NCBI GenBank assembly: GCA_964627365.1
Contig: CAZVJS010000006.1
Span: 3,075-27,074, forward strand
Direction: 5' to 3'
Length of the DNA stretch: 24,000 bases
From: an uncultured Candidatus Saccharibacteria bacterium
GTDB taxonomy: Bacteria; Patescibacteriota; Saccharimonadia; Saccharimonadales; CAZPPF01
Shown here one piece after another: positions 1-17,855 of this stretch. A model generated the notes under the pieces. It saw only the letters and a program-made list of their open reading frames with translations, was not told the DNA's origin and ran no database searches. A program made the position numbers and the translations under genes. Position 1 is the stretch's first letter. Each line of letters begins with the position of its first letter.

Positions 1-232
1 CAATAAGGGCATAAATTATGGTGTTGCGGGCCTTGGAGGTTTTTTGCGGATCGCCTGAAGATAAAATAAACTGCAGGCCAGACAAAACTATGATAATTAA
101 GGCAACTGCACTGGCCAGGGCAAAAACAATCTGCAGCACAGTGTGTATGTGGCCGCCATTTAACTCCGTAGTGGGTATATTAAGCTGATCTGGAGTTACA
201 GTTACCTGGCCAAAAACCGTGAAGAGGCTCAT
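1..232 (-). CDS. TrbC/VirB2-like T4SS pilin, paralog 3 (first 77 codons only; gene runs off the left edge)
   Basis: Absent from the ORF track because it is truncated. Manual reverse-strand translation from ATG 232..230 gives MSLFTVFGQVTVTPDQLNIPTTELNGGHIHTVLQIVFALASAVALIIIVLSGLQFILSSGDPQKTSKARNTIIYALI... A hydrophobic helix is followed by the G-x-Q-F/Y-x-x-S-x-G-D/E-P-x-K...A-R/K..I..AL motif shared with the two upstream paralogs. ATGA start/stop overlap with the preceding gene (stop 231..229). GGGAG lies 6 nt upstream. Confidence 0.6.
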   Translation of the reverse strand, partial: MSLFTVFGQVTVTPDQLNIPTTELNGGHIHTVLQIVFALASAVALIIIVLSGLQFILSSGDPQKTSKARNTIIYALI

Positions 233-621
233 GTCAGACTCCCGGCAATAAAGCTTACGATCACGGTGGCCATGATGGCGATAACCAAACCAACGAGCGC
301 ATTAATAATGGTTCGACGGGCCGAGGCGGCTTTTTCCGGCTCGCCTTGGCTCAAGATAAATTGAAAACCCCCGTAGATGACAAATGCAACCGCGACCAGG
401 CCACCAACCCGAAGGGCAATTTCAACCAACGCTAAACCTATTTTGGCAACGTTTTGAGGGTTGTTTACAAGGTCAAGTTTGGGTGTGCACTTTCCGCCAA
501 TATCATCACCATCAAGGTATTTATACCAAGGTGGTACAACATCATTCAAAATGCTTCCGCCTGCACCAGGCGTGCATGCAGCTGCAAAACGAGTAACAAG
601 ATTGGTTATGCCGGGTATCAT
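229..621 (-). CDS. TrbC/VirB2-like T4SS pilin, paralog 2 (130 aa from ATG 621)
   Basis: The track ORF is 229..648, but codon 648 is GTG. The in-frame ATG at 621..619 has a perfect AGGAGG (636..631) 9 nt upstream and overlaps the upstream stop as TGATG, so 621 is preferred. The C-terminal half has two hydrophobic helices flanking GGFQFILSQGEPEKAASARRTIINALVGLVIAI, the loop motif typical of T4SS pilins. Confidence 0.7.
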   Translation of the reverse strand: MIPGITNLVTRFAAACTPGAGGSILNDVVPPWYKYLDGDDIGGKCTPKLDLVNNPQNVAKIGLALVEIALRVGGLVAVAFVIYGGFQFILSQGEPEKAASARRTIINALVGLVIAIMATVIVSFIAGSLT

Positions 622-1268
622 CAGAAAACTCCTCCTGGAACTATCCACTGCAGGAAGGCGTACATAAATATAAAGACAAATAATGCGAGAAGGGCGTTGG
701 TAATTTTGGTCTTGGCGGCTTGGACTTTTTGCGGGTCATCGCCAGCTGCCGAATACTGGATGCCACCGACAATAATCATCATCACAACGACCACACCCAC
801 GATGGCCGATAAGACATTAATGGCAGTCACCAGGTAATCAAGTATTCCACAATGTTCCGCCGAACCCTCGGCAGCACCAGCCTTAAGGGCTGTGCCGTTA
901 CAGTCATCCTTAACATATTTTGGTTGATGAGAACCGCCTGTATCGAAATTTATTTTGGTTACAGGAATGCAAACCTGCACGCCGTAAATACTAACAAAGC
1001 CTGCCCCACCAAAAGGGCAGGCTGTACCACCCGTGCCTATAGCTACTTGGTCTCCGTCGTTAAAATTGGTCGCACAATCATACGTCGTGCCATCTTTTTG
1101 CGGTATATTGGTCGTTAGTTTTATATCACCGTTGCTACAGGTCCCATTACTAGAGGGGTAGACATCGGCCGCAAAGACCTTGGCATTAGGAGCAAGTCCC
1201 ATTACTATAAATGTTACCGCAAAACAGAGAAGCATGGCTCTAAGAACAGTTTTTGTTATTAGGTGCAT
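621..1268 (-). CDS. TrbC/VirB2-like T4SS pilin, paralog 1, with signal peptide and a ~125-aa six-cysteine ectodomain inserted before the pilin core
   Basis: 215-aa ORF. N-terminal signal-like MHLITKTVLRAMLLCFAVTFIVMGLAPNAKVFA/ADV. Then a Gly/Thr/Cys-rich segment with 6 Cys, followed by the pilin core VVVVMMIIVGGIQYSAAGDDPQKVQAAKTKITNALLALFVFIF. First gene downstream of a consensus promoter. Confidence 0.7.
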   Translation of the reverse strand: MHLITKTVLRAMLLCFAVTFIVMGLAPNAKVFAADVYPSSNGTCSNGDIKLTTNIPQKDGTTYDCATNFNDGDQVAIGTGGTACPFGGAGFVSIYGVQVCIPVTKINFDTGGSHQPKYVKDDCNGTALKAGAAEGSAEHCGILDYLVTAINVLSAIVGVVVVMMIIVGGIQYSAAGDDPQKVQAAKTKITNALLALFVFIFMYAFLQWIVPGGVF

Positions 1269-1277
1269 TTGGGGTTT

Positions 1278-1306
1278 ATTTTACAAGCATGTCCACCACT
1301 AGTCAA
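1278..1306 (-). promoter_or_regulatory. Sigma70-type promoter of the pilin operon (TTGACT-17-TAAAAT); near-leaderless
   Basis: Minus strand reads TTGACT (1306..1301), a 17-nt spacer, TAAAAT (1283..1278), then AAACCCCAA and ATG (1268). There are only 9 nt between the -10 and the start codon, and no SD. Confidence 0.6.
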
Positions 1307-1324
1307 AGCACAGGCAAATCGCCA

Positions 1325-1353
1325 TTGATTATTTAGACTTTTTGCTGTATAAT
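1325..1353 (+). promoter_or_regulatory. Sigma70-type promoter (TTGATT-17-TATAAT) for the plus-strand T4SS gene string
   Basis: TTGATT at 1325-1330, a 17-nt spacer, TATAAT at 1348-1353. The GAAGGAAGAG SD-like tract precedes ATG 1377. It lies back-to-back with the pilin promoter; the -35 boxes are 18 bp apart. Confidence 0.6.
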
Positions 1354-1376
1354 ATGGTGCATAAGAAGGAAGAGTT

Positions 1377-2243
1377 ATGGCAGTAGATAATCCTCAAGAA
1401 CCCCAGGCAACGCCAACGATGCCGGAAGGCTTAGCTCATTCTGGTACAACTGGGCATGAGAAGCCTGTACATGAAGACGAATTCAGCGGTGCGGATTTAG
1501 TAGATGTTGTTGATCTAAACCTGGTTAATACTGAAGGTCCAACTACTACGGGAGACTTGCCAGACTTTGTTCAGGCGCCCGAAAAGAAGAGTCGAAGGAA
1601 ATTTCTCATTGCCCTTGGTGCAGGTGTGGCTGTTGTTGCCCTCGCCGTTTATGGTGCCCTAAAAATTGGGGGCGATAGTGACTCCTCAGGCCAAAATAAT
1701 TCTAACCAGACCAGTGGGCAAGACGCCGGAAATAAGCCGCCTTCTAGTGTGCATATATCTCCCGAGACTGGACTTCCCACCGACCTAGACAAGAACCTCC
1801 CTCCCGAGCTCGATATTCCTAGTGGTTTCACGGCTCAACTGCTCGCAAATCAACTCTTTTCAAATTACACGAATGCAATTAATAGGAATGATGTACGCTT
1901 TCTGGCATACGAAGTTGCAGATCTTAACAGCAAGGCAGGACAGGAAGGTCTGGCCGCAATGAAGAAATTTGCTGACTTCAGGAAACTACACCCTGACTAT
2001 ACAGACACTTTTACACCGACTGTTATTCAGGATCAAATTTTTACTGGCAATGAGAGTGAGCGGGTAATCACGTTTAGGCTTGCTGAGGATGAGCACGGTA
2101 CGGGAGTAGAGTCCGATCATTACAGCTTCGTCAAGCAAATGCGTTTGATCCCGGTTGAGAGAACGGTTGATCTTGATGATGGTGACGGCCCGCATGAAAT
2201 AACCTTGTGGTTGATTGACACAGTTCAAGACGTTCAAAATTAA
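1377..2243 (+). CDS. Bitopic membrane protein (acidic N-terminus, one TM, ~170-aa C-terminal globular domain); function unknown, possible VirB8/ConB-type scaffold
   Basis: 288-aa ORF with an SD and a consensus promoter. Single TM FLIALGAGVAVVALAVYGAL, then a Ser/Gly/Asn linker and a mixed alpha/beta-looking domain. The VirB8-like idea rests only on topology, size and context. Confidence 0.75.
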   Translation: MAVDNPQEPQATPTMPEGLAHSGTTGHEKPVHEDEFSGADLVDVVDLNLVNTEGPTTTGDLPDFVQAPEKKSRRKFLIALGAGVAVVALAVYGALKIGGDSDSSGQNNSNQTSGQDAGNKPPSSVHISPETGLPTDLDKNLPPELDIPSGFTAQLLANQLFSNYTNAINRNDVRFLAYEVADLNSKAGQEGLAAMKKFADFRKLHPDYTDTFTPTVIQDQIFTGNESERVITFRLAEDEHGTGVESDHYSFVKQMRLIPVERTVDLDDGDGPHEITLWLIDTVQDVQN

Positions 2244-2311
2244 GCGTTTGTTACATCTCTAACCATAGGTGTTTGGGCGTAATATCGGTTATTTTTGCCA
2301 TCTCTTGTACG

Positions 2312-2320
2312 TGATAGAAT
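2312..2320 (+). promoter_or_regulatory. Possible extended -10 element (TGaTAGAAT) 10 nt upstream of ATG 2330
   Basis: TGATAGAAT at 2312-2320. No good -35 and no SD before ATG 2330. The upstream ATG 2324 is immediately followed by an in-frame TGA. Confidence 0.35.
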
Positions 2321-2329
2321 AAACATGAA

Positions 2330-5300
2330 ATGAAAAAGCAAAAGCGTAATGGTTTTGTTCGAGTTTTCGGCTATTTGAGCGCTTTTACTATTCTGTCATC
2401 TATTCTAATATCTCTGATTCTAAATTCTTCTGTACTTGCTGTAGACACTTACACACTTACAGTTGACGGCAATGGCACAGCGTCAATCAGGGGCCCAGTA
2501 GTCCCCTCGAGTCCCAGAACGGTGTCATTCTCTCAAGACTATAATACGAATGCGAACCCGATAACTGGACATTATTCATTTACCGATGGTGATCCTAGCA
2601 GTGGAAGCGGAGATTACTGTACCTATATAATAGCAACCTCTAACGGGAAAAAAACGGATACAAGCGGTACCTTGGGCGTGACCGGTTCAGCCTCTAAATG
2701 CGGTAACCTCAATGGAAAGACTTATCAGATAACAATTACCGTTAATAGCCTGACAAAAACGGGTACATGGCTTGACCACAGCACTATATCCGTGGATGGC
2801 GTCGATTACACCGACCCAAAGATTGATGACAATCTGACTTTCACTGCTAAAGGCAGCGGCTGCGTAAACGGGAGCACTATTAGTGGCTTTTCCCACCAAG
2901 GCAACGATCCGGCCAATGCGACTGCAACAGTAAATCTTGAGCTTCTCAGCGGGAGCAGCGGAAACTGCACATCACAGACCTACAGCTTGAAGCTTTCTGA
3001 TCCCAATAATCTATACAATGCCTACTTCGTCTGGCAAGATTCGACAACTATTTCAACTTCAGATGGTACTGGCGTCATATTTTTGAATACCGACCCCACA
3101 ACAAACCTATACTTTGGCACGGCCGGAAGAAGTGGTGACGGTTCGTCGCCTAAAACTTGTCATGCATCCTCTATTGAAGCCGCTTTAGGGGTTACTACTG
3201 GGCAATTGATACTCAGAAACGGTAATCTGCATGAAGGTTGGCAAGATAAAATTTCAGGTGCAACTCTGAATAATATCGGAGGCTGTGAACAATCTGGGAA
3301 AATTTCTGTACAAATTGCAAGGGGTCCAAACGCAACCAAGGCTGGAGGTTCATCAGATGTTGCTAAGGGTGTGGGTTCCGGAGCACAGGGTGACGGTTCA
3401 CAAAAACCCTCCTGTGAGTCCAAGGGTGGCGACTTTGCGTGGGGCATTTGTCCAATAGTTAGGATGGTTGATAGTGCTCTCAAATGGGTTGACGAACAAA
3501 TTGAAGCTTTGCTTGAGGTTGATCAAAAGCCGTTTAACTCCGGTAGTGGTCTACAGCAGGCTTGGGCACAAATACGCAACATTGCATATATAATCCTGGT
3601 TCCGATGATGTTAGTTATGGTTATTGGCACCGCCCTCGGCTTCAGCTTTGTGGACGCCTACACTGTTCGGCGTGCCTTACCTCGTATGGTTATAGCCATA
3701 TTATTCATTGCCTTGTCCTGGGAACTAACAACCTTTCTAATCACTGTCTCTAACGTTGTTGGGGCGGGCGTTATGGGAATTTTGACACTACCATTTAAAG
3801 GGGCTGCCTCCGCACTCGGGGCTGATTCAATCAGCCATCTTACCCTTTCGTCGCTGTTTGCTGGTAGTAATAATGTTGGTGGTTTCTTGGAGACAATTGC
3901 GGCTAGCGCTGCATTTGCTGTTGGTGCAATTGTCCTACTGTGGTTATTTGGTAGTGCTTTGCTTTTGGCGGCCACCCTTGCATTTATAGTTTTAGTGCTC
4001 AGACAGCTTTTTATAGTTGCGCTTGTGATTTTTGCCCCACTCGCCATACTAGCCTGGATTTTCCCTGGTAACGATAAGCTATGGGGTGCCTGGTGGAGTA
4101 TGTTCTCTAAGCTACTGCTGATGTTCCCGCTTATAATGGCTCTGCTTGCTATTGGTCGGGACTTTGCCGTTATTATTCACCAAGGTGGCCTTGGAGATAA
4201 TGATGCTGGAAGCGTTATAGCCAAGATTGCTATTGTGATTGCCTGGCTGGTCCCATACGCCTTAATACCACTAACCTACAGGTTTGCGGGTGGTGCGTAC
4301 GCCTTTGCCACCGGTTGGGTTGGAGACAAAGGCAAGGGCATATCCGAGCGTCAGCGGAAAAAACGCGCCGAGCGGGTTCAGCAAAGGGCACAGAAAACAC
4401 TGGCTGGAGAAGCTTTTAATTCCAACAGCAGGCTGGGCAGAACCTTAAACAGACCATTTCAAACCGCCGCTATGGCGGCAACAGGCCGGGGTGGTATTAA
4501 TCCCTTGAATATGAAGAGTAAAATCAACTCCGTCAGGGGTGTAGCGGCAGGCTCTGAAATGGCGGAACTCGCGGATAAGAATGAAGACATTAAGGCAGTG
4601 TCGGTCGATGACCACTTGGCTGAAGCCACACAAGTAGCTCAAGGCAGAGCTCAGATACGAGACATGCTTCGCAATAGCCGCAATCGTGACGGTAGCGCAA
4701 GTCGATGGGCTACGGCTCAGCCACAAGAATTAGAAGAGGCTGTTTCGCAGGTACAAAGGGCACAACGTGCCGGTTCCACAACCGCTGTACGATCGGCAAT
4801 GTCGGTAGCAAGAGCAGCTTCTGGTACAGGATACGGATCATCTTCTGATATGTATAAATCCATCATACAGGCAGCAGGTGGTAACAGGCAGCTTGAGGGT
4901 TCCTTACTAGCAGCCACTAGAAGCGCCTCAGAAAGGGCTAGACGACCAGACCTAGCCAGTGTTGGACATGTAGAGCAGGCCACGTACATGGACCAGGTTA
5001 GAGCCACAATGGGTACGGCTGATGAGGCCGACACGGACGCGCGAGTAAATGCATCAATGCGGGCTCGCTCCTTCGAGACATCCGGCGCACATGCTGCCGT
5101 GTCTGGCAGAACAGAAGCGGTAGGAAATATGTTAGTTGAGATGGGCAATGACTATAATCACGCCATCGAAACTGGTGACGTACAAATGGCTACTGAGGTC
5201 GCATCACAAATAACCTCAGTCCGTCAAGCCCAGTCAGCCGCAACACCAGACGTAAGACGACAAATTATGGGCATGCTTGATACTGTTGGGTTTGATGCAG

Positions 5301-5512
5301 ACTCCGCCGAGAGTGTACCTCAACAATTGGGTGCTAGGATTGGTGGAATGGCGTACGGTGGAGGGGGACCAGAACAGCAACAAAGACTGGTTCAAGCAGC
5401 AATTCAACAAATTGGAACTCGAGCTGGAACGTACGATCAGGGTACTCTCGGCCGTACCCCAGAACAAATAAGGGCTGGTGTTCCAGAACCTCCACAACCT
5501 CCCACCCCATAA
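2330..5512 (+). CDS. Giant T4SS polytopic membrane protein, VirB6/TrbL-like core with a ~370-aa ectodomain and a ~400-aa cytoplasmic low-complexity tail
   Basis: 1060-aa ORF. Signal/anchor MKKQKRNGFVRVFGYLSAFTILSSILISLILNSSVLA. A Thr/Ser/Gly/Asn-rich extracellular region contains Cys. Around aa 420-670 there are 6-7 strongly hydrophobic helices (IAYIILVPMMLVMVIGTALGF ... VIAKIAIVIAWLVPYALIPL). The Ala/Arg/Gln/Ser-rich tail ends in PEPPQPPTP. The VirB6-like call comes from architecture and context, not a recognised motif. Confidence 0.6.
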   Translation: MKKQKRNGFVRVFGYLSAFTILSSILISLILNSSVLAVDTYTLTVDGNGTASIRGPVVPSSPRTVSFSQDYNTNANPITGHYSFTDGDPSSGSGDYCTYIIATSNGKKTDTSGTLGVTGSASKCGNLNGKTYQITITVNSLTKTGTWLDHSTISVDGVDYTDPKIDDNLTFTAKGSGCVNGSTISGFSHQGNDPANATATVNLELLSGSSGNCTSQTYSLKLSDPNNLYNAYFVWQDSTTISTSDGTGVIFLNTDPTTNLYFGTAGRSGDGSSPKTCHASSIEAALGVTTGQLILRNGNLHEGWQDKISGATLNNIGGCEQSGKISVQIARGPNATKAGGSSDVAKGVGSGAQGDGSQKPSCESKGGDFAWGICPIVRMVDSALKWVDEQIEALLEVDQKPFNSGSGLQQAWAQIRNIAYIILVPMMLVMVIGTALGFSFVDAYTVRRALPRMVIAILFIALSWELTTFLITVSNVVGAGVMGILTLPFKGAASALGADSISHLTLSSLFAGSNNVGGFLETIAASAAFAVGAIVLLWLFGSALLLAATLAFIVLVLRQLFIVALVIFAPLAILAWIFPGNDKLWGAWWSMFSKLLLMFPLIMALLAIGRDFAVIIHQGGLGDNDAGSVIAKIAIVIAWLVPYALIPLTYRFAGGAYAFATGWVGDKGKGISERQRKKRAERVQQRAQKTLAGEAFNSNSRLGRTLNRPFQTAAMAATGRGGINPLNMKSKINSVRGVAAGSEMAELADKNEDIKAVSVDDHLAEATQVAQGRAQIRDMLRNSRNRDGSASRWATAQPQELEEAVSQVQRAQRAGSTTAVRSAMSVARAASGTGYGSSSDMYKSIIQAAGGNRQLEGSLLAATRSASERARRPDLASVGHVEQATYMDQVRATMGTADEADTDARVNASMRARSFETSGAHAAVSGRTEAVGNMLVEMGNDYNHAIETGDVQMATEVASQITSVRQAQSAATPDVRRQIMGMLDTVGFDADSAESVPQQLGARIGGMAYGGGGPEQQQRLVQAAIQQIGTRAGTYDQGTLGRTPEQIRAGVPEPPQPPTP

Positions 5513-5532
5513 TAAGTATTCTATAAAATGAA

Positions 5533-5561
5533 TTGACTTATTATACAGCTTATGCTATTAT
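5533..5561 (+). promoter_or_regulatory. Sigma70-type promoter (TTGACT-17-TATTAT) positioned for a leaderless mRNA
   Basis: TTGACT at 5533-5538, a 17-nt spacer, TATTAT at 5556-5561. The A of ATG 5568 lies exactly 7 nt after the -10, and there is no SD. Confidence 0.6.
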
Positions 5562-5567
5562 ATTTAT

Positions 5568-6947
5568 ATGTCAGAAACTCCACATCGTACCACCGAAACT
5601 ACCCCCCCGGTACCGCCAGAATCAGCTCCAGTAGCGGCTCCTGAGTTACTTGCCACGAATATTGACGAGTCGGCACCAGCACTAAATGGGCTGCACAGGT
5701 TTGTATTAGCTTTCCGTTTGAGTTGGGCCACAGGGACCAGGGACAGTCGAGTAGCACGTGATAAAGTTGCTACAGAGACTGCTGCCGGGGCACAACTTAT
5801 TCGAGGGTTTGGCACTCCCGCAGAGGATCGTAGATGGATCCCAACCAACCCCCTACAACTAACCACCGCTATACATCGACGCGGCCAAGCAAGGAAAAGC
5901 CGTAAGGCTGCTGTTGAAAAGTGGAGAATATCACAGGTTTATGGCACGAAGGAGACTCCTACTGAACCAGCACCTCCAAATACAGCCACGGAGACTCCTA
6001 CTGAACCAGCACCCAAACATAGAAACAATCGCTCTACACAACTTGACTCTGAAGTTTGGGACAAAAGAAGGGAAAAAATTGCCGAAAATGATCGTCCTAA
6101 AGTCTATGATCCAGATAGGGCAACTGATCCAGAGCACCGTACCCGTCGATTTGAGAGTAGAGCAGAAAAAGGTGCTGCCCGCAGGTACAAAAGCCAGGAT
6201 AGGGTAATTAACAGGCGTGAACGCCGCTTGCATAGGGCAGCGGAGGGTAATACTGTAATTGGCAAAGTTAGAAAACAGCTAATCAAAAGGTCAAACCGTA
6301 AGGTTGACGACCTGACTGAGCGCCTTAGAGGAACACCAGCACAGCGCGATGCAGTTGCAGAACCGTCGCGCGAGCCGGAGCCGACCCCATTTAGCCCCAG
6401 AACACCCGTAACACCAAGACATGAGACACCCAGAACAACCCCTGGGGTAACCGTACACCCTAAAGGAAAACTTTTTGGTAAAAAACTTCCGGACGGTACC
6501 CACACTCCAGTTTTTTACGAGGAAGACAGGCGCCGTTCGCGAAGAGACAATCCAAGGTCGATGCCCCGTCGTCAAGCCAGTCGGGAAGGCAATCGCGAAG
6601 ACGATACGGCAAGGATGGTTAAGCAAACGTCAGATCTCCTAGAGGCAGTCGGAGCACGATTTGATTTTGCAAAAGTCCTAGACCTTGATACTAAGGTATA
6701 CAAAGAGCTTGAGGACAGAGCCCATGACATAAAGGATCACCAGCCCGAAAAAACTATCGAGGATCCTAAACGCCCGGGCACAAGAAAAGTTCGACCAGAC
6801 GTATTTAACCCAATTATCCGCGAGGTACGAACAAAGCAGATGCAAGAATTCTTGGCAGATATTTACAAGGATGAGCCGGTACACCCGGTAGTTGCTAACG
6901 CTCTCGATAAGGCGCTTGACCTTGCTCAAAACCTCCGCGACAGCTAA
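5568..6947 (+). CDS. Highly basic Arg/Pro/Glu/Thr-rich, predicted disordered protein with a structured-looking C-terminal ~100 aa; no TM; unknown function
   Basis: 459-aa ORF with no hydrophobic segment. It has runs such as RRERRLHR, RRRSRRDNPRSMPRRQASREGNRED and PRTPVTPRHETPRTTPG, plus the internal repeat TETPTEPAP. The long open frame sits in a region where the other frames are only short shadow ORFs. Confidence 0.75.
   Translation: MSETPHRTTETTPPVPPESAPVAAPELLATNIDESAPALNGLHRFVLAFRLSWATGTRDSRVARDKVATETAAGAQLIRGFGTPAEDRRWIPTNPLQLTTAIHRRGQARKSRKAAVEKWRISQVYGTKETPTEPAPPNTATETPTEPAPKHRNNRSTQLDSEVWDKRREKIAENDRPKVYDPDRATDPEHRTRRFESRAEKGAARRYKSQDRVINRRERRLHRAAEGNTVIGKVRKQLIKRSNRKVDDLTERLRGTPAQRDAVAEPSREPEPTPFSPRTPVTPRHETPRTTPGVTVHPKGKLFGKKLPDGTHTPVFYEEDRRRSRRDNPRSMPRRQASREGNREDDTARMVKQTSDLLEAVGARFDFAKVLDLDTKVYKELEDRAHDIKDHQPEKTIEDPKRPGTRKVRPDVFNPIIREVRTKQMQEFLADIYKDEPVHPVVANALDKALDLAQNLRDS
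5951..6013 (+). repeat. Perfect 24-bp direct repeat (GGAGACTCCTACTGAACCAGCACC) at 5951-5974 and 5990-6013, period 39 nt, in frame
   Basis: Read directly from the sequence. It encodes the duplicated ETPTEPAP peptide inside the basic disordered protein. Confidence 0.9.
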
Positions 6948-7001
6948 CATACCCATTACGCTTCTTGATGGCTTGCCTAATATGAGAGATACTTATGTTT
7001 A

Positions 7002-8147
7002 GTGGCAACATATAAAGTTATTCAAGATATTGAGGCCGAGGATAAGTTTGTCGGCCCGCTGACCCTAAAGCAATTCATTTTTGCCGCTATTACCGTAGTG
7101 TCTGGCTATGTCAGCTTCTTGTTTATTAGCAAGCACGTCTGGTTTTTGGCTTTGCCGCTATTGCCAGTAATTTTTGTGGGTGGGTTTTTGGCCTTTCCGT
7201 GGGGCAGAGACCAGCCAACCGAAACGTGGTTGTTGGCTAAAATTCGCTTTTTCTTTAAGCCCCGTCTGCGCATCTGGGATCAGGATGGGGTAGAGGAGCT
7301 GGTTACTATTACTGCGCCAAAAAAAGTTGAAGAAGTATTGTCAGACAACCTATCACAAACAGAGGTCAAAAGCCGTCTGAGAGCACTGGCAGATACTATT
7401 GACAGCCGGGGCTGGGTGGTCAAGAACGTTAACGTGAACATGTTTGCCGACCCATCCTATGCTACTTCTGTGACGGATAGTGATCGGCTAGTGGGTGTTT
7501 CAAGCCTACCGCAAGCCGTACCAGCCGTGGACATCCGTGCTGACGAAGACATACTGGACGAAAATAATAACCCGAAGGCCCAAAAACTTGAACAGATGAT
7601 CACCACTTCTGAAAAAGAGCACCGTCAAGAGATGATGGGCAAGATGCAGGCAGTTCGTGATCGTCAGACGGCACAACCAACACAGAATGGCCAAAACCAG
7701 CCACTATGGTTCATGGACGATCCAGCCAGTGGTCAACAATTACCAGCTGGTTATACTACCTTTAGCACCCAAACAGCTGCGCCTGGAAACGATTTGCCAC
7801 AGGTTGCGCAGCAAGCAACCACCCTGTCTGACGAAGAAAAGGCGCTTTTGGACAAAGTGCATAAAGATAAGGCGGAAGAGGCCAGAACTAAACACAGTAA
7901 CATGCGAGTTATTGAACCGTTTTCTTCTAAAAAACATCATCCAAAATCAACCGTCAAGAAAGCCGCACCCAGCCACCCGAAACCAGCGCCCCCCAACAGA
8001 GACACAAGCACTAGCGATAAGGGGACTGATCCTGCTATACTGGGACTTGCTGTTAACAACGACCGCGATGTGGCCAGTCTGGCCCGAGAAGCGAATAAAA
8101 AACGCCCTCCCGAACCGCCAGACGAAGTGGTTATTTCATTGCGTTAA
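7002..8147 (+). CDS. PrgI-family (VirB3-like; Tn916 Orf17 / ConD analogue) T4SS membrane protein with a ~260-aa low-complexity C-terminal extension
   Basis: GTG start. The N-terminus MATYKVIQDIEAEDKFVGPLTLKQFIFAAITVVSGYVSFLFISKHVWFLALPLLPVIFVGGFLAF matches the PrgI-type pattern: a charged box, then G-P-x-T-x-K/R-Q, then two TM helices. It sits immediately upstream of VirB4, as in Gram-positive T4SSs. Confidence 0.65.
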   Translation: MATYKVIQDIEAEDKFVGPLTLKQFIFAAITVVSGYVSFLFISKHVWFLALPLLPVIFVGGFLAFPWGRDQPTETWLLAKIRFFFKPRLRIWDQDGVEELVTITAPKKVEEVLSDNLSQTEVKSRLRALADTIDSRGWVVKNVNVNMFADPSYATSVTDSDRLVGVSSLPQAVPAVDIRADEDILDENNNPKAQKLEQMITTSEKEHRQEMMGKMQAVRDRQTAQPTQNGQNQPLWFMDDPASGQQLPAGYTTFSTQTAAPGNDLPQVAQQATTLSDEEKALLDKVHKDKAEEARTKHSNMRVIEPFSSKKHHPKSTVKKAAPSHPKPAPPNRDTSTSDKGTDPAILGLAVNNDRDVASLAREANKKRPPEPPDEVVISLR

Positions 8148-8196
8148 CTACTTCCCGTGAGCAATCACTTACGTAGGGTGGGCAAGTCTAGAATTT

Positions 8197-9033: not shown

Positions 9034-10946
9034 TGGCCTTTGGCAAGAAAAAAACCAAGGTTGATCCGGTAACACTGGCTCAACAGCAACGGGTGCGCGA
9101 GGAGCAAGAGGTGGTCCAGGCCTTTCAAAAAGGCGTTACGGCCCTGCGCGATTTTATTGCGCCAAGCTCGCTCAAGTTCGAAAATGCCCTGTTTCACCTT
9201 GGCACACGTTTTGCCCGCACTTTTTACGTCTATGGCTACCCCCGTCAGTTATACACAGGCTGGCTATCGAGTATGGTGAACCTCGATGAGGTTATGGACT
9301 TATCTCTCTATGTCTATCCGGTTGAAAGCCAGGTGGTTATGGAAAATCTCCGTAAAAAAGTAACTCAGTTGGAGGCTGGTATACAGATTGATGCCGAAAA
9401 AGGTCGGGTGCGTGACCCGGGCAAGCAAGCAGCCATTATGGACGCCGAAGAAATGCGAGATAAGCTACAGGTGGGCGAAGAACGCTTCTTCCGGTTTGGT
9501 ATGTACTTTACCGTTTATGGCAGCAGTTTGGATGAACTGGAGTTTGTGACACACAAAATTGAGTCTGTGCTTGGGCAGCAACTGGTCTACTCTAAGCCGG
9601 CTAGCTCGCAGCAAGAACAAGGGTTCAATAGCACCATGCCACAGTTTACAGATCAGCTACAAATTCGCCGTAACATGAACACTGGCGCCATTAGTACTAC
9701 TTTTCCATTTACCTCAGCTGACCTAAGTCAGGACAACGGCATTCTGTATGGCATAAATATGCATAACTCGGGTCTAGTAATCTTTGATCGCTTTAGTTTA
9801 GAAAATGGTAATTCGGTAGTATTTGCAAAGTCTGGCGCCGGTAAATCGTTTACGGTGAAGCTGGAGGCTCTGCGTAGCCTGATGTTTGGCACAGAGATAT
9901 TTATTATTGACCCGGAGAATGAGTACCAGCGTATGGCTGACGCGGTTGGTGGAGCATATGTAAAACTCAGCCTCAATTCGCCGACTCGCATCAACCCATT
10001 TGATCTGCCTAAGGTTGTTGATTCGGAGGAGGCAGACAATGCGCTTCGAAGTAATCTTATTACACTGCATGGACTACTACGCCTGATGATGGGAGGTGCT
10101 CAGACGCAAATGGTGGGAGGCAGCGCCACAGCAATACCTGCATTGAGCCCGGTAGAAGAAGCCGATTTGGATGCCGCCTTGATAGAAACCTATGCCAAAG
10201 CCGGCATCACCAATGATCCTTTAACGCACACCGGTATGCCACCAACAATCGCTGATTTGTACGATACCTTACTACACATGGGCGGTACTGGGCCGCAATT
10301 AGCCCAACGTTTGAGGAAGTATACTTCTGGAACATTTGCCGGCATTTTCTCACAGCAGTCCAATATCGATATCAACAATCCATTAGTAGTCTTTAACGTA
10401 CGCGACCTCGAGGACGAACTACGCCCCGTTGCAATGTATATTATTTTGAACTTTATTTGGAACAAGACTAAAACTGATCAGAAGAAGCGCATTTTGATTG
10501 TTGATGAGGCCTGGCAGCTGCTGAAATATGAGGATTCGGCTAACTTTTTGTTTAGCCTTGCTAAGCGTGCCCGCAAATACAATTTAGGTCTGACTACAAT
10601 TTCCCAGGATGTCGAAGACTTTATGGGTAGTCGTATGGGGCGAGCTATCGTGGCTAATGCTTCTATGCAAATCCTGCTTAAGCAATCGCCGTCAGCTGTG
10701 GCAGTGCTGTCAGAGGTCTTTCGTCTGACCAGTGAAGAATCAAAGCGCCTTAGTCAGTTTCCAGTGGGACAAGGTTTATTCTTTGCTGGCCAAAATCATG
10801 TTCACATTCAGATTACTGCTAGCCCAACTGAAACTGGACTGATTACCACCAACCCTCAGCAAGTGCAGGAAATCGCCCAGCAAGGCGAGATCACTCAACC
10901 ACAAGGTACCATTGACCTTAGTAACAGATTAACTCCTGGGGTATAA
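9033..10946 (+). CDS. virB4: VirB4/TrbE/ConE-family T4SS ATPase (split VirB4, part 2)
   Basis: 637 aa. Middle-domain signature FIAPSSLKFENALFHLGTRFARTFYVYGYPRQLYTGWLSSMV. Walker A is AKSGAGKSF (nt ~9831-9848) and Walker B is ILIVDEAWQLL (nt ~10491-10520). Downstream is GLTTISQDVEDF. GTG start with AGGGAG 8 nt upstream. Confidence 0.9.
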   Translation: MAFGKKKTKVDPVTLAQQQRVREEQEVVQAFQKGVTALRDFIAPSSLKFENALFHLGTRFARTFYVYGYPRQLYTGWLSSMVNLDEVMDLSLYVYPVESQVVMENLRKKVTQLEAGIQIDAEKGRVRDPGKQAAIMDAEEMRDKLQVGEERFFRFGMYFTVYGSSLDELEFVTHKIESVLGQQLVYSKPASSQQEQGFNSTMPQFTDQLQIRRNMNTGAISTTFPFTSADLSQDNGILYGINMHNSGLVIFDRFSLENGNSVVFAKSGAGKSFTVKLEALRSLMFGTEIFIIDPENEYQRMADAVGGAYVKLSLNSPTRINPFDLPKVVDSEEADNALRSNLITLHGLLRLMMGGAQTQMVGGSATAIPALSPVEEADLDAALIETYAKAGITNDPLTHTGMPPTIADLYDTLLHMGGTGPQLAQRLRKYTSGTFAGIFSQQSNIDINNPLVVFNVRDLEDELRPVAMYIILNFIWNKTKTDQKKRILIVDEAWQLLKYEDSANFLFSLAKRARKYNLGLTTISQDVEDFMGSRMGRAIVANASMQILLKQSPSAVAVLSEVFRLTSEESKRLSQFPVGQGLFFAGQNHVHIQITASPTETGLITTNPQQVQEIAQQGEITQPQGTIDLSNRLTPGV

Positions 10947-10975
10947 TAAAACCATAAACTTGTTCAGAGACAAAC

Positions 10976-13900
10976 ATGGCCCTAAAACTAGAAGATAGAC
11001 CTGATAGCGACAACGATAATGGCAAGCCTTCGTGGATGACCAATCTGTCTGATTTTGATGATTGGGAAAAGGAACTCGCAGAGCCCTCAGAGACTGATGA
11101 CAGCTCGTCTGAAGGACAACCTAGTAAAAGCAAGGTTAGCAGTCCTGAAGAGCTAAAGGATGCTGAGAACAGTGCAAAGCAGCCCTCGCAAGACAGTTCT
11201 CCGGAGGACGAGCTCTATTCTGGTGACGAAGGGCCAACGGGCAAACAGCGGATTAGGGCTACCCTTACAACCAAGCGTTTGGTGGGTGGTGGTGTTGGTG
11301 CGCTCGTTACGTTGGGTGTCTTTGGTGCGCTAACCCTTTCCTCGGGACCATTGCAGTTTGTGCACATTGCTCAGCTTTTACAGCGTTTTCATTTTGGTTC
11401 TATGGAGGACAACGGCAATAGTCGTCTACTAAAACTCTATAAATACGCCAAGAACGCTCAGGAAGGCAATGCGGCAAATGTGCGTCTTGGGGTGTTCGAG
11501 AAACGTGTGGCCTTAAGTTTGGATGCCAAGTTGGAAGAAATTGGGGTAACAAAAAAGTATGGTGGCTTAACACAGCAATATGCTGGAGTAGAGATAGACC
11601 CGGTAAAATTCAGTCAGAGCGAAGTCGGAAAAGACATAGCAAGAAACGGGGACCCCGAAGTGGTTAGGAGCTGGTTACAAGAAAAATACGGGGGCACGGT
11701 TAGTATTGTTGAACATCCAGGAGGTAACTCAACTTTTCTTGTTGAGCCGGACAGTGGCTTTTTGGGCTATAGTAATCGATCGTTACGTGCCCAGAACAAA
11801 CTTCTTCTCGCTGATATTGGTGAGGATGGAGTAGTTGGATCTGTCGAGGCGAGAATTATGGGTAAGCGTGATGCGGTGTCTTGGCACTTTATGAAAAAAA
11901 TTGACGCTAAGATTAGCGGCACACTCGATGACTTTATAACAAGCCAGCTGAAGAAGCTTTTTCAGAATGGTGAAGACCCGGTTGCCGCAACGGCACAACC
12001 AAAAAAGGATACCCAAAGCGGCGAAACTACCACAGATCCTGCAAGTACAGACGCTGCTACAGGCGTGTCTGATGAAGGGCAGAGAGCCAAAGCGGCAACT
12101 ACCGCCGGGGAAGGGCTCACAAACAGTGCTAAAGAACCGGGCTATATTTCTCAATTCTTTGACACGACAACCGGCAAGCTAGTGGGCGGAGGAACCGCTG
12201 CAATTGGTCTCTTTTGTGCGATTAAAGCGCTTGGGGACAACGTGGATAGTATTCGTCACGATATGGTGGTTCTCCCGCTCATCCGGCAGGGAATGTTGGC
12301 TATCTCTCTGGGAAACCAGGTTATGAATGGGAAGGATGTCGACATAAAGCAACTTGGCGTTCTGGCCAAACAATTCAACGACCCGAAAAGTGGTTCGTGG
12401 TCGGCTGCAAAAAGTATTCAGGCGGAAGAAGGAAAAGATCCTACAGGCAAGGATATACCCAAATCAGCAAGTATTAAGGAGCTACAAAATAACGGCTTCT
12501 TTGGGGGTGTGTTGGGGGATATTTTTGGAAGCTCATTCGCTGGATTTACCTGCGATGCGGCAGGTAGTTTTATAGGACAGGCGTTTAGCATGACTATTGG
12601 CTTGGTAACGGCACCTGCTTTGACCGCAATTGGGTTTGGGCTCGCTCAAACTGATATAGCCAAAGAGGCGATTGTCGGGCTAGTGCAGTGGCTCGCCGGC
12701 ACCCCGATTCCAACACTGGTGTTTGGCCCAGATTATGGCAATTTCATCAATTATGGCGCGCGTTTAGCATCAAACGATGCTGCTCTTTCGCTGGGTGGTG
12801 TTAACTTATCTGATGCTCAGTCTACTGCCCTGCGCCAATATAGGCTAAATACACAGAAGGATGATATGAAAAATCAGTCCTTCGCTGAACGTGTTTTTGA
12901 CCCTTATTCGCCAGACTCGCTGGCCGGTAAGATCATAGACAACCAATCTACGAGCGTTAGTACTGGTGTGGCGAACATGTTCAGCTCCATTATCAATCCA
13001 ACCAAGCTGTTTAGTAGTTTTGGTAGCATATTCTCAAACCGTGTAAATGCAGCGGCTTCTAGTGGCTACGATTACGGTTTTCCCGAGATGGGCTTTAGTC
13101 TAGATGATTTGAATAATTCTACCTACGAAGATCCGTATGCAAACGCCGATAATGCTATTTCAAGTATAAAAGGTAATTGGACAAAATATAGTGACAGGGC
13201 TAAGGCCTGTTTTGGGGTGAACTTATCAAAGGATGGTGATGTCAGCACAGACCTATCTGCCAAGATTGATCCACTAAAAACAACGGGTGAGGGTGCGTAT
13301 CCCCAAGACTGTGCTGATCCAAGTCCGGAGTGGACAAGCATACGGTTCTACATTCTGGACACCAAAACAGCCGAGGCCGCCGACTGCTACGAAACCGGGG
13401 ACAGCCAATCTTGTACCAATGTCGGTTTTGGAACTACTTCTGGTACTGCTGATACCGGTATGGCTACCAGTGCCAATACCTACTTCTTGGGCGACTCTCT
13501 AACTGAAGGTATGCGTGATGCAGGTAACTTGGCGCAATCTCTGCAAGCCCAGGGTTGGAGCTCTACCATAATGGCCACGTGTGGTCGTCCCTTAGCTGGA
13601 ACGGATACCTACAGTAGTTGTGACGCGCCCCCAATTCAAGCATATAGGGGGTTAGGCGAAGTGGATCAACCGGCCGATCAAGCTGCTATTAAAAGTGCTG
13701 GAGTCGTAGTGGTTGGCCTGGGTGCTAACGATCCGGGTAGTGCAACTTTTGGAGACGACGTAAAGGCCATGGTAAGCAAAATTAAAGCACTCAATCCAAA
13801 TGTAAAAATTTACTGGATTAACTTGTACTCATCAAACAGTAACGCGCCGGCCTATCAGGCTATGGACGCTACTCTTAACAGTCTTGCGTCAACAGATGGC

Positions 13901-14023
13901 TTTACGGTTATTGACTGGGCTAGTATTGCGGGGCAATACCCTCTAGACGGAGGCGTGCACCCCAGTGGTAACTATGACAAGATGACAAATTTGGTTGTTA
14001 GCAAGCTAGGGCAAGCGCCATGA
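10976..14023 (+). CDS. Giant T4SS-associated membrane protein with a C-terminal SGNH/GDSL hydrolase (esterase/lipase) domain; occupies the ConG/Orf15 position
   Basis: 1015 aa. Acidic disordered N-terminus. TM LVGGGVGALVTLGVFGALTL, a second LVGGGTAAIGLFCAI segment, and Gly-rich hydrophobic stretches around aa 510-580. The C-terminus carries SGNH blocks: YFLGDSLTEG (GDSL at nt 13489-13500), VVVGLGANDPG (nt 13715-13738) and DGGVHPSG (Asp codon 13946-13948, His codon 13958-13960). Confidence 0.85.
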   Translation: MALKLEDRPDSDNDNGKPSWMTNLSDFDDWEKELAEPSETDDSSSEGQPSKSKVSSPEELKDAENSAKQPSQDSSPEDELYSGDEGPTGKQRIRATLTTKRLVGGGVGALVTLGVFGALTLSSGPLQFVHIAQLLQRFHFGSMEDNGNSRLLKLYKYAKNAQEGNAANVRLGVFEKRVALSLDAKLEEIGVTKKYGGLTQQYAGVEIDPVKFSQSEVGKDIARNGDPEVVRSWLQEKYGGTVSIVEHPGGNSTFLVEPDSGFLGYSNRSLRAQNKLLLADIGEDGVVGSVEARIMGKRDAVSWHFMKKIDAKISGTLDDFITSQLKKLFQNGEDPVAATAQPKKDTQSGETTTDPASTDAATGVSDEGQRAKAATTAGEGLTNSAKEPGYISQFFDTTTGKLVGGGTAAIGLFCAIKALGDNVDSIRHDMVVLPLIRQGMLAISLGNQVMNGKDVDIKQLGVLAKQFNDPKSGSWSAAKSIQAEEGKDPTGKDIPKSASIKELQNNGFFGGVLGDIFGSSFAGFTCDAAGSFIGQAFSMTIGLVTAPALTAIGFGLAQTDIAKEAIVGLVQWLAGTPIPTLVFGPDYGNFINYGARLASNDAALSLGGVNLSDAQSTALRQYRLNTQKDDMKNQSFAERVFDPYSPDSLAGKIIDNQSTSVSTGVANMFSSIINPTKLFSSFGSIFSNRVNAAASSGYDYGFPEMGFSLDDLNNSTYEDPYANADNAISSIKGNWTKYSDRAKACFGVNLSKDGDVSTDLSAKIDPLKTTGEGAYPQDCADPSPEWTSIRFYILDTKTAEAADCYETGDSQSCTNVGFGTTSGTADTGMATSANTYFLGDSLTEGMRDAGNLAQSLQAQGWSSTIMATCGRPLAGTDTYSSCDAPPIQAYRGLGEVDQPADQAAIKSAGVVVVGLGANDPGSATFGDDVKAMVSKIKALNPNVKIYWINLYSSNSNAPAYQAMDATLNSLASTDGFTVIDWASIAGQYPLDGGVHPSGNYDKMTNLVVSKLGQAP

Positions 14024-15207: not shown

Positions 15208-15217
15208 GTTTTCAACT

Positions 15218-16768
15218 ATGGAAGCAAAACAACCATTCTACTTACAAAAGCGCAACTGGATTGTAGCGGTGCTGCTTATCATATTTGTTGTGGTGGTGTC
15301 TTACGTATCAGGGACGGGGATTCTTACTGTTAGCTTATCGGGTTCCACCACAAAAGAACTAGCCACTAATCTCACAAACCAGGACAGTGGCAAATCATCA
15401 GAAATTAAAACAAGTTCCAGCTTTTCCAAGTATTTACCAAAGAGCAGTTATGAAATCTTTTCCAAAGATACATCTGGCAGCTTTTTTGCAGTTGCCAAAA
15501 CCAAAGGCTTTCTACAAAAAACAGCCGTAGATGGAAAACTTGTCCAAGAAAAAAGCCGTGCGTTTATTGGAAATAATCCTCGCACCTGCTCTTACTACGT
15601 AGGTGGAACCCTGTACTCATATTACTGCAACGATTCTTTTACGAACGTAGTTATGCACGTTCCAGCAACCGCATCGCTTGCTACCTATATTTCCAAAAAT
15701 ACCAAAATTGGAGTCGATGGCTCCGTAGAGGGAACAGCCAACTTGGGTGGCAAAACGTATTTGCTGCTCAGGTCCCCGGCCACCGAAGGCACATCAAAGC
15801 CAACACACACCGCTTATTCAGCGGGCAGTAACTTTTCCCTAATTAATCCTATACCCCTTAAAGATTTAGATAATTCTGCAGTGTATGAAATCGCTACTTT
15901 TCAGGACGGCTTCTTGGTCTACAACGCGCCAAAGAATGATTATTGGTACTATGGGCAGGGTTTTAGTAATCCGCGTCACTTGCAAGTTCCCGGCCTTAAA
16001 GACCCCTCCTTAAAGCGCCCTCTGGTTGGTTTCAATAAAACAACTTTGGTTATTACACGCTCCAACAAGTCCGATTTTGAAAACCACGATAATCCAAACA
16101 ATAAGATTGGCAAAGTCAAAACACAAGTCGACATTTATGAGAATGGTGCCTTTAAAACAGTGGTCTTCGACCAGAAGTTAGACAATTTTTTCACAGGACT
16201 TGAACCCTGCGGGCAAGACTTGATTTGCATGATTAGTAATAAAAAGCTTTATGTGTATGACATAAGTGGTGACAATGCCAAACTCTCCTACGGCGTAAAT
16301 GGTGTGGATTATATATATACGGCCGCAAATCAAACACTCTTAATTCGCGATAAGGATATTTTGAACTTCAATGCAGCCACTGCTAACGGGTATGTCGAAT
16401 ATAGTTTTGGTAGCTACGGTTATTGTGGTCTGCAACGAGATACCGATAATGGCTATATACTTTGTGTATCTGGTATTAGTGGTGTTCCTTCGGCATTATA
16501 TATTGACCGCACAAAAGACAATACCGACAATATTGATAAAAAAGTAGGGAAACTGGGCGAATCAAAAGAGGTAAAAAGCGTCTCTGCCTATGGCAAATTT
16601 ATCTATATTGTACCCAACCTCGGAGATTTGGTTTATAACAGAAGTATCAAGGGCTACGACTACGACCCAGCCGTCAAAAAGAGTGTCGCAAGTAAAATAA
16701 ACCAAACCGTTGATGAATTAGGTATGGATAGAAGTTCGTACACCGTTATTAATACCCTGCACCCGTAA
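15218..16768 (+). CDS. N-terminally membrane-anchored 516-aa extracytoplasmic protein of unknown function (last gene of the T4SS string; Orf13/TcpC position)
   Basis: Single TM WIVAVLLIIFVVVVSYVSG, followed by a Tyr/Gly/Asn/Lys-rich, beta-strand-looking domain. It starts 11 nt after the hydrolase gene. I recognised no motif. Confidence 0.75.
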   Translation: MEAKQPFYLQKRNWIVAVLLIIFVVVVSYVSGTGILTVSLSGSTTKELATNLTNQDSGKSSEIKTSSSFSKYLPKSSYEIFSKDTSGSFFAVAKTKGFLQKTAVDGKLVQEKSRAFIGNNPRTCSYYVGGTLYSYYCNDSFTNVVMHVPATASLATYISKNTKIGVDGSVEGTANLGGKTYLLLRSPATEGTSKPTHTAYSAGSNFSLINPIPLKDLDNSAVYEIATFQDGFLVYNAPKNDYWYYGQGFSNPRHLQVPGLKDPSLKRPLVGFNKTTLVITRSNKSDFENHDNPNNKIGKVKTQVDIYENGAFKTVVFDQKLDNFFTGLEPCGQDLICMISNKKLYVYDISGDNAKLSYGVNGVDYIYTAANQTLLIRDKDILNFNAATANGYVEYSFGSYGYCGLQRDTDNGYILCVSGISGVPSALYIDRTKDNTDNIDKKVGKLGESKEVKSVSAYGKFIYIVPNLGDLVYNRSIKGYDYDPAVKKSVASKINQTVDELGMDRSSYTVINTLHP

Positions 16769-17832: not shown

Positions 17833-17855
17833 TATCCTTATTGTAGCCCGGGCGC

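Follow-up and report, generated by a model that had tools for sequence, protein, structure and literature searches.

Gene Content of the Locus

Genes for a type IV secretion system (T4SS) occupy positions 1–16768 of a 24,000-nucleotide (nt) stretch of DNA from an uncultured Candidatus Saccharibacteria bacterium (contig CAZVJS010000006.1, positions 3,075 to 27,074 of the forward strand; assembly GCA_964627365.1). This entire stretch is called the window herein, and coordinates refer to it. A listing of open reading frames (ORFs) combined with profile searches reveals that pilin genes on the minus strand diverge from an operon of machinery genes on the plus strand. Several of the plus-strand genes overlap by 1–4 nt, which is expected for a co-translated operon.

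In the original prediction, made from the sequence alone, the locus was read as a repurposed conjugation machine of the Gram-positive type, possibly bearing a pilus. The profile hidden Markov model searches that it proposed were conducted with the Pfam and NCBIfam collections, and these matched pilin, PrgI, VirB4, lysozyme, and GDSL families. The features of the locus are as follows (aa, amino acids; TM, transmembrane; TAT, twin-arginine translocation).

1..232, minus strand: VirB2-like pilin, the third of six in its array; only the first 77 codons lie in the window (full protein 96 aa)
229..648, minus strand: VirB2-like pilin; 130 aa with the ATG at 621 as start (the call made on contig L082, see below), 139 aa with the GTG at 648
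621..1268, minus strand: VirB2-like pilin, first gene of the pilin operon; 215 aa, signal peptide, long Cys-rich N-terminal extension
1269..1376, no strand: divergent intergenic region between the pilin and machinery operons; 108 nt, promoter-like hexamers facing both ways
1377..2243, plus strand: candidate VirB8-like membrane-anchored protein, 288 aa; weak TAT-like signal, TM segment at 77–95, predicted NTF2-like C-terminal domain
2330..5512, plus strand: extended VirB6/TrbL-like polytopic protein, 1060 aa; precomputed TrbL_3 match and TM map
5568..6947, plus strand: Arg-rich protein, 459 aa; no TM segment, probably largely disordered, lineage-specific
7002..8147, plus strand: PrgI/VirB3-like protein (Pfam PrgI PF12666); two TM helices in the first 91 residues, long low-complexity tail
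8197..9033, plus strand: TrsD-like protein, the detached N-terminal VirB4 domain, 278 aa; partial NCBIfam matches
9033..10946, plus strand: VirB4 ATPase of the monoderm CD1110 type, without the N-terminal domain, 637 aa; conju_CD1110
10976..14023, plus strand: membrane protein with a C-terminal SGNH/GDSL esterase, 1015 aa; Lipase_GDSL_2, conserved helical N-terminal module of ∼800 aa
14020..15207, plus strand: secreted, probably bifunctional cell-wall hydrolase, 395 aa; lysozyme-like domain and putative NlpC/P60-like cysteine peptidase
15218..16768, plus strand: single-pass anchored protein, 516 aa; one TM segment at 15–33, large extracellular part, last gene before recF

A VirB4 ATPase Encoded by Two ORFs

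The ATPase of the system is encoded by two adjacent ORFs. The 637-aa product matches the NCBIfam model conju_CD1110 with 358 bits (cutoff 325), although only model positions 180–734 are covered, and it also matches the Pfam families P-loop_TraG and AAA_10. The 278-aa product upstream aligns with positions 4–118 of conju_CD1110 and 98–253 of VirB4_plasma, and with TrsD (E values from 1.6e-6 to 3.8e-5). The two ORFs thus cover complementary parts of one VirB4 model, and the original description of VirB4 as split is confirmed. Their junction is tight, since the stop codon of the TrsD-like gene overlaps the start codon of virB4 by 1 nt (TAGTG).

A BLAST comparison of the TrsD-like ORF with the VirB4 ORF revealed no similarity, which indicates that the two are complementary pieces of a split gene and not the products of a duplication. 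Related loci provide a further control. For this purpose and for the comparisons described below, we used loci from 80 species-representative genomes (L002–L081) chosen by VirB4 similarity. The TrsD-like piece is present in 80 of the 80 loci with a median identity of 73%, and therefore the split is not an assembly frameshift. We conclude that the two-piece VirB4 is real and ancestral. The same arrangement is formed by TrsD and TrsE of plasmid pGO1, and a published survey found TrsD to be more abundant in Patescibacteria than any other T4SS component (PMC12102498).

The best NCBIfam match of the TrsD-like protein is to the N-terminal part of a mycoplasma VirB4 model, NF045975 (E 1.6e-6, below cutoff). 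Together with a mycoplasma match of the 215-aa pilin described below, this match hints at a link between the transfer systems of Patescibacteria and Tenericutes. A search of the PDB with a sequence profile of the TrsD-like protein (31 homologues) returned nothing meaningful.

An Array of Six Pilins and Its Left Border

Three VirB2-like pilins had been predicted at the left end of the window, and all three ORFs score above the gathering score of Pfam T4SS_pilin PF18895 (26.6 bits). The values are 31.9 bits for the ORF at <1–232, 42.6 bits for that at 229–621/648, and 34.1 bits for that at 621–1268. Two C-terminal TM helices are predicted for the pilin at 229–648, and TM segments are predicted for the 215-aa pilin as well. 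A profile match and a two-helix hydrophobic hairpin, both sequence characters of VirB2/TrbC-type pilins, are present. The paralogues are 21%–32% identical to the first pilin when aligned, and one member of the six-pilin array also gives a weak match to TrbC PF04956. Coding is compact here as well: The ATG of the pilin gene at 1–232 overlaps the stop codon of the preceding pilin gene (ATGA).

The edge of the window cuts this array, such that the window holds its proximal half. To the left, the array can be followed on L082, a Logan contig of the source organism that encodes 100% identical proteins and reaches ∼1.6 kb past the window. This contig carries three further pilins, for a total of six that all match T4SS_pilin, and beyond them the C-terminal end of a gene for Hsp20. 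Related loci carry six or seven pilins, and then genes for Hsp20 and a ComF-type phosphoribosyltransferase on the left.

The 108-nt intergenic region at 1269–1376 holds the two best consensus matches of a promoter scan, one per direction. On the plus strand, TTGATT and TATAAT are separated by 17 nt (1325–1353), whereas the minus strand carries TTGACT and TAAAAT with the same spacing (1306–1278). Each pair agrees with the sigma-70-like consensus at 10 of 12 positions. As consensus matches, these hexamers mark putative promoters for the two operons.

Gram-positive conjugation systems had been said to lack VirB2-type pilins. This rule is not absolute. NCBIfam includes a family of 'pilin-like conjugal transfer proteins' from mycoplasma integrative and conjugative elements (ICEs), NF045849, which the 215-aa pilin matches weakly (E 2e-6, below the curated cutoff). 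The notion that monoderm T4SSs are devoid of pilins consequently has at least one other exception.

Candidate Channel Proteins and Anchored Proteins

The PrgI/VirB3-like protein at 7002–8147 was correctly anticipated, scoring 44.3 bits against PF12666 (cutoff 27). Homologues occur in 75 of the 80 related loci.

Two membrane proteins of >1000 aa had also been noted, and these are the 1060-aa protein at 2330–5512 and the 1015-aa protein at 10976–14023. The former has the layout of an 'extended VirB6', in which a signal or TM segment is followed by an ectodomain of ∼385 aa, six TM helices (residues 418–646), and a hydrophilic tail of ∼410 aa. An identical protein in the databases carries a precomputed match to Pfam TrbL_3 PF19590, and 5 of 31 homologues match TrbL PF04610. 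Searching the PDB with a VirB6-like sequence profile built from 31 homologues gave nothing meaningful. Matches to influenza HA2 that appeared in the PDB profile searches with the TrsD-like and VirB6-like proteins had E values >0.02 and were discarded as coiled-coil noise.

Each of the two proteins described originally as single-pass anchored proteins, of 288 and 516 aa, has one predicted TM segment. The 288-aa protein begins with a possible TAT signal (E 0.022). A structure was predicted with AlphaFold2 by using nine remote homologues from an exhaustive HMMER scan. Residues 140–288 are modeled with a predicted local distance difference test score >90, and form three helices packed on a four-stranded sheet. 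When this model was compared with the PDB by using Foldseek, the NTF2-like domains of ARC6 and PARC6 ranked first and the VirB8 homologues CagV and TrwG next, but no match reached E ≤ 1e-3. On the basis of this model, it is plausible that the protein is a VirB8-like component. It is not conserved in all relatives. The Southlakia epibionticum protein SEML1_0012, which likewise combines a TAT signal with an NTF2-like domain and is non-essential, is comparable.

Two additional proteins are restricted in distribution. The 459-aa protein contains 13% arginine, and its gene includes a perfect 24-nt repeat (5951–5974 and 5990–6013) encoding ETPTEPAP. It has no match in Pfam or NCBIfam, and relatives have no homologue of it even among the ORFs that occupy this slot, which in some of them are unrelated and 280–430 aa long. 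The 516-aa protein also lacks a family match in Pfam and NCBIfam, and homologues were found in only 11 of the 80 loci. Direct Pfam scans, even at E ≤ 1, yielded nothing for the 1060-, 288-, 459-, and 516-aa proteins or for the C-terminus of the hydrolase described below.

Wall-Acting Enzymes Have Exchangeable Domains

Two products of the operon are expected to act on cell walls. The 1015-aa protein ends in a domain (encoded by 13480–14023) that matches Lipase_GDSL_2 with 45.5 bits (cutoff 32.9). The best PDB matches of its AlphaFold2 model are peptidoglycan O-acetyl enzymes, namely PatB, Ape1, and OatA, together with carbohydrate esterases; all of these matches involve the SGNH domain. The N-terminal 800 aa have no structural match in the PDB.

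The gene for the second enzyme overlaps that of the 1015-aa protein (ATGA). Its 395-aa product was originally likened to CwlT, with a muramidase joined to a peptidase. The lysozyme half is firm, as the N-terminus matches Phage_lysozyme2 with 115 bits and is of the phi29 gp13 lysozyme type (E 2.7e-4). The peptidase half is supported through homologues, since the C-terminal 180 residues of the window protein have no direct Pfam match. BLAST homologues of this region in related loci (E 1e-21 to 5e-5) match NlpC/P60, three of them above the cutoff, and the region itself (14650–15207) exhibits a conserved Cys...His pattern. Thus, an NlpC/P60-like assignment is supported transitively from sequence comparisons.

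Comparison across species reveals that the partner domains of both enzymes vary. In the family of the 1015-aa protein the N-terminal module is kept, and the C-terminus is a GDSL/SGNH domain in the window and its closest relatives and VanY/M15 in most other members. The remaining members end in a beta-lactamase-like domain, M15_4, or no recognised domain. Similarly, the second domain of the lysozyme family can be NlpC/P60, CHAP, C39-like, M23, Amidase_3, or GDSL. This pattern would fit adaptation to different host walls. The exchange of wall-enzyme modules, while the ATPase barely changes, suggests that experiments on host specificity should focus on the surface parts.

Conservation of the Locus among Relatives

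The VirB4 protein is 80%–89% identical to proteins from the 80 genomes, nearly all of which are labeled as Saccharibacteria or Saccharimonadales metagenome-assembled genomes. The same gene order is seen in the ∼45 loci, each from a species-level genome, that are long enough to judge: pilins on the minus strand, then genes for the VirB6-like protein, PrgI, the TrsD-like protein, VirB4, the 1015-aa family, and the lysozyme, followed by recF, dnaN, and dnaA. Two loci are rearranged. Locus L048 has its pilins ∼10 kb downstream of virB4, with no recF-dnaN-dnaA in view, whereas in L073, recF is located upstream of the pilins. These cases indicate that the origin-side position is common but not universal.

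Components of the locus differ greatly in their rate of change. Among these loci picked by VirB4 similarity, median identities are 84% for VirB4, 74% for DnaA, 73% for the TrsD-like protein, 67% for DnaN, 56% for RecF, and 45% for PrgI. The corresponding values are 41%–45% for the pilins, 33% for the hydrolase, 29% for the VirB6-like protein, and 28% for the 1015-aa protein. The motor has therefore changed far less than the parts that act at the surface and on the wall.

Absence of Mobility Genes

Pfam scans of all major ORFs of the window identified no coupling protein, relaxase, or recombinase. The only ATPases among the ORFs scanned are VirB4, RecF, and DnaA, leaving no second T4SS ATPase, and no meaningful flanking repeat was found in the window. 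The description of the locus as free of these features therefore holds. G+C content remains between 0.41 and 0.51 throughout the window with no discontinuity, and neither a tRNA nor any Rfam family was found in it.

Because the core genes have their ancestry in conjugation systems of monoderms and the window ends within the pilin array, which makes its left border invisible in the window itself, an ordinary ICE or conjugative island could have its coupling protein, relaxase, integrase, and attachment (att) sites just outside. Mobility genes and att sites immediately beyond the left edge were the case that the original prediction named against itself, and this flank was inspected. In the source organism, contig L082 reveals three more pilins and then Hsp20, with no relaxase or coupling protein, and relatives carry Hsp20 and ComF in this location. 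The right border is recF-dnaN-dnaA, a position shared by the ∼45 species-level genomes. We also examined 83 unassigned ORFs, each 250 aa or longer, located within 10 kb of virB4 in relatives. No coupling protein, relaxase, or integrase was present among the best 25 of 48 families, and the families matched represent housekeeping and cell-wall enzymes. Moreover, relaxases are rare in this phylum (PMC12102498). Given the Hsp20 border, the lack of att-like repeats, the even G+C content, and the lack of mobility families among the best 25 of 48 in relatives, we reject the possibility of an ordinary ICE as highly improbable.

A Conserved Chromosomal System of Saccharimonadia

Systems of this type have been described previously. 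McLean et al. (2020) reported a conserved region in Saccharibacteria with homologues of VirB4, VirB6, VirB2, and PrgI, along with four to six small proteins that carry Sec signals and are encoded in an array, and proposed secreted effectors. By using transposon sequencing, Wang et al. (2023, Cell, PMC10633639) found that a cluster beside dnaA-dnaN-recF in S. epibionticum ML1 is essential for epibiotic growth. The essential genes encode the pilins, the VirB6-like protein, PrgI, the TrsD-like protein, VirB4, the membrane protein that follows VirB4 (SEML1_0007), and the lysozyme. These authors noted a resemblance to Gram-positive conjugative systems, an essential pilin array, and no coupling or relaxase proteins, and suggested protein export.

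A survey of the phylum (Quinonero-Coronel et al. 2025; PMC12102498) defined a distinct VirB4 clade that is sister to MPF-FATA, with TrsD, PrgI, VirB6, and VirB2-like genes being widespread. It catalogued 441 pilin arrays of 2–11 genes that average 25% identity. Relaxases are almost absent, homologues of coupling proteins are usually far from virB4, and dnaA is often near. The same study notes that comEC and a distant coupling-protein homologue are non-essential in S. epibionticum. A 2025 review describes the T4SSs of Patescibacteria as unique among monoderms in being essential and possibly piliated.

The best explanation for our observations, which we hold with considerable confidence, is that the locus is not a mobile element but a conserved chromosomal T4SS of the Saccharimonadia (Patescibacteria), that it corresponds to SEML1_0004-0019 of S. 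epibionticum, and that it serves a non-conjugative role at the interface with a host. On every point, our results and the literature support the view of a repurposed Gram-positive-type conjugation machine, possibly pilus-bearing and distinct from an ICE, in a host-dependent, small-genome bacterium of the Saccharibacteria type. Novelty had also been attributed to the locus. This stands for the substrate and the physical architecture, but not for the array of pilins, the lack of a relaxase and a coupling protein, the proximity to dnaA, or essentiality, all of which have been reported (PMC7427843; PMC10633639; PMC12102498; PMC12857230). The system is already published for Saccharibacteria and other Patescibacteria, and the window contributes one more member and opens no new question.

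Proposed Mechanism and Direction of Transport

A working model for the machine can be assembled from established T4SS biology. PrgI/VirB3 would anchor the two-polypeptide VirB4, composed of the TrsD-like N-terminal domain and the ATPase, to the membrane beside the VirB6/TrbL-like channel protein. VirB4 would then pull Sec-inserted VirB2-like pilins from the membrane and polymerise them into a pilus or tube, while the VirB6-like protein would form the membrane channel. The lysozyme/NlpC-P60 enzyme and the SGNH esterase of the 1015-aa protein may open or modify peptidoglycan, either that of the cell itself or that of the host. The resulting structure would bridge to the host cell and move macromolecules.

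One study calls the function 'completely unknown' while suggesting nucleotide uptake and citing ComB as a precedent (PMC11665869). A recent preprint describes tubular structures, possibly T4SS pili, at the parasite–host interface, and feeding on host RNA (bioRxiv 10.64898/2026.06.21.733656). We tentatively lean toward uptake of macromolecules from the host, above all nucleic acids, over effector export, a preference that is based on analogy and falls short of an even chance. Import would require no coupling protein, and the distant homologue of this protein is dispensable in S. epibionticum. Furthermore, ComB and Ced, which take up DNA, are examples of T4SS-derived machines that lack coupling proteins. 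The organisms that carry the present system are unable to make nucleotides, and comEC is dispensable.

Several considerations weigh against a confident reading of the locus as a host-interface transporter. What is observed here is a set of genes, and the pilus, channel, and substrate are putative. The direction of transport is argued from analogy and from the absent coupling protein. This absence covers the locus and its flanks on a contig of 27 kb, and homologues of coupling proteins occur elsewhere in many Patescibacteria genomes. Likewise, the current copy of Pfam yields no match for the 1060-aa window protein, so that its assignment to VirB6 fails there; PF19590 seems to be missing from, or altered in, the newer release. 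The candidate VirB8-like assignment refers to an NTF2-like fold with no PDB match at E ≤ 1e-3, and the S. epibionticum counterpart is dispensable. Finally, choosing the loci by their VirB4 similarity introduces a bias into the conservation comparison and raises the figure for VirB4.

Two other functions need to be considered. To subvert its host, the cell might use the T4SS to inject proteins, or its own wall hydrolases, into that bacterium or onto its surface, in the manner of effector-translocating or bacteria-killing T4SSs. Most non-conjugative T4SSs do export proteins, this activity was suggested by Wang et al. (2023) on the grounds that relaxase and coupling protein are missing (PMC10633639), and secreted effectors were proposed by McLean et al. 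(2020). In addition, the operon encodes secreted hydrolases that vary between species. However, known one-step effector translocators need a coupling protein of the VirD4 type for substrate recruitment, whereas the locus and its neighborhood encode none, and S. epibionticum can dispense with its distant homologue. Nor does the locus encode a potential effector in which a toxin domain can be recognised, and the small 'secreted array' once taken for effectors consists of pilins. We consider effector export a serious rival, although less likely than not.

Alternatively, VirB2-type pili might simply hold the epibiont on its host, with no cargo passing. Six divergent pilins, which are essential in S. 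epibionticum, and fast-evolving surface parts that fit host recognition would be consistent with such an attachment organelle. Yet Saccharibacteria already attach by means of type IV pili and adhesins (PMC11665869; 2025 review). A full translocon (VirB6-like protein, PrgI, and VirB4) plus wall-cutting enzymes under strong constraint also seems more than adhesion needs, although pilus biogenesis itself requires VirB4, VirB3, and VirB6, which qualifies this objection. An organelle for attachment only is rather improbable in our estimation.

Uptake of host macromolecules is therefore the function toward which we lean, and it can be given a more specific form that we advance as speculative and on the unlikely side. 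A VirB2-type tube, driven by a two-piece VirB4 and operating with no coupling protein, might pierce the host wall and draw in host nucleic acids or other macromolecules, helped by species-specific, swappable wall-enzyme modules (SGNH esterase, VanY/M15, NlpC/P60, M23, and amidase). If such an import device exists, then the fast-diverging pilins and enzyme modules would set the host range.

The T4SS of Patescibacteria is among the most interesting unsolved machines of the phylum, being essential, conserved, and derived from conjugation, yet devoid of DNA-transfer genes. It may be the route by which these tiny bacteria feed on their hosts. For comparative purposes, the window documents the split VirB4, the six-pilin array, and the borders of the locus in an environmental lineage of Saccharimonadales.

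Origin-Side Neighbors

As originally stated, the T4SS locus adjoins recF-dnaN-dnaA, which lie directly to its right at 16774–20675. The genes on this side were assigned with Pfam.

16774–17832, minus strand: recF
17856–18947, minus strand: dnaN
19206–20564 or 20675, minus strand: dnaA
20833..22783, plus strand: rpmH (L34), rnpA, yidC, and jag/khpB, the usual origin-side operon; rpmH is at 20833–20970

The start codon of dnaA is probably an internal ATG near 20564, which gives a protein of 454 aa as in relatives, rather than the TTG at 20675. The window contains 7 matches to the E. coli DnaA-box consensus where 5.6 are expected, and thus shows no enrichment. Consequently, the term 'origin-adjacent' describes gene order. 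Three DnaA boxes with one mismatch each cluster at 20624–20728. Farther to the right, positions 22817–23700 contain two or three small ORFs with no family match, including one of 98 aa whose product looks membrane-anchored. The C-terminal part of a GT4 glycosyltransferase at 23662–24000 on the minus strand runs off the right edge.

Comparison with Known Systems

Several characterized systems share parts of this gene set. The H. pylori ComB system and the archaeal Ced system are, like the window locus, chromosomal, with a VirB4-type ATPase and VirB6-like and VirB2-like parts, and with no relaxase or coupling protein. The VirB4 of the window also gives partial P-loop matches to the CedB and CedD models, far below their cutoffs. 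In contrast to the window locus, ComB has a diderm outer-membrane core and takes up free DNA, and Ced is archaeal. We do not claim specific homology beyond the ATPase fold.

Mycoplasma ICEs resemble the locus in placing a pilin-like gene (Mbov_0395) beside a monoderm-type VirB4 gene (Mbov_0397), with scores that are below curated cutoffs. These elements differ in being mobile and in carrying a transposase and a coupling protein. The matches nonetheless indicate that Patescibacteria are not alone in having a pilin-like gene next to a VirB4 of the monoderm type.

The MPF-FATA systems, represented by trsC-trsD-trsE-trsG of pGO1, CD1110 of CTn2, and prg/pcf of pCF10, are more extensively similar. 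They share with the window PrgI/VirB3, a CD1110-type VirB4, a separate TrsD-like N-terminal piece (in pGO1), and a polytopic VirB6-like protein. A hydrolase that probably combines a glycosidase with NlpC/P60 and a candidate NTF2-like anchored protein for a VirB8-like role add to the resemblance. Unlike these systems, the window locus has no coupling ATPase, relaxase, oriT, or integrase, occupies a fixed chromosomal site across species, and includes an array of VirB2-like pilins. The conD-conE-conG-cwlT genes of ICEBs1 and orf17-orf14 of Tn916 also belong to this class and would resemble the window in their order of PrgI-like, VirB4, large polytopic, and hydrolase genes.

The closest agreement is with the T4SS clade of Patescibacteria. 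The features of this clade that are present include a monoderm-type VirB4, an adjacent TrsD-like gene, PrgI, a VirB6/TrbL-like protein, a divergent pilin array, and proximity to dnaA. Also as in this clade, no relaxase or coupling protein was found in the cluster, on the basis of scans of the window and of the neighboring genes in relatives.

Compared with S. epibionticum ML1, some differences are apparent. The C-terminus of the protein encoded after VirB4 is an SGNH/GDSL esterase in the window, whereas it is an M15/DD-peptidase-like domain in ML1. The hydrolase of the window has one lysozyme domain and a probable peptidase, compared to two lysozyme-like domains and a cysteine peptidase in ML1. 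Between PrgI and the pilins, ML1 encodes two proteins of ∼1000 aa, while the window encodes one plus the 459-aa Arg-rich protein. The NTF2-like gene is on opposite sides of the VirB6-like gene in the two organisms, and the gene beside recF encodes the 516-aa anchored protein in the window, in contrast to PEGA and prealbumin-like proteins in ML1.

Otherwise, SEML1_0004-0019 and the window correspond nearly gene for gene. Both encode a lysozyme-type hydrolase, a membrane protein of ∼1000 aa, VirB4, a TrsD-like protein, PrgI, and a VirB6/TrbL-like protein, and neither carries a relaxase or coupling protein in the cluster. Both also encode a protein with a TAT or TAT-like signal and an NTF2-like domain (predicted in the window protein) and six pilins, followed by Hsp20 (SEML1_0020) and ComF (SEML1_0021), and in both the cluster is a neighbor of recF-dnaN-dnaA (ML1 genes 0001-0003).

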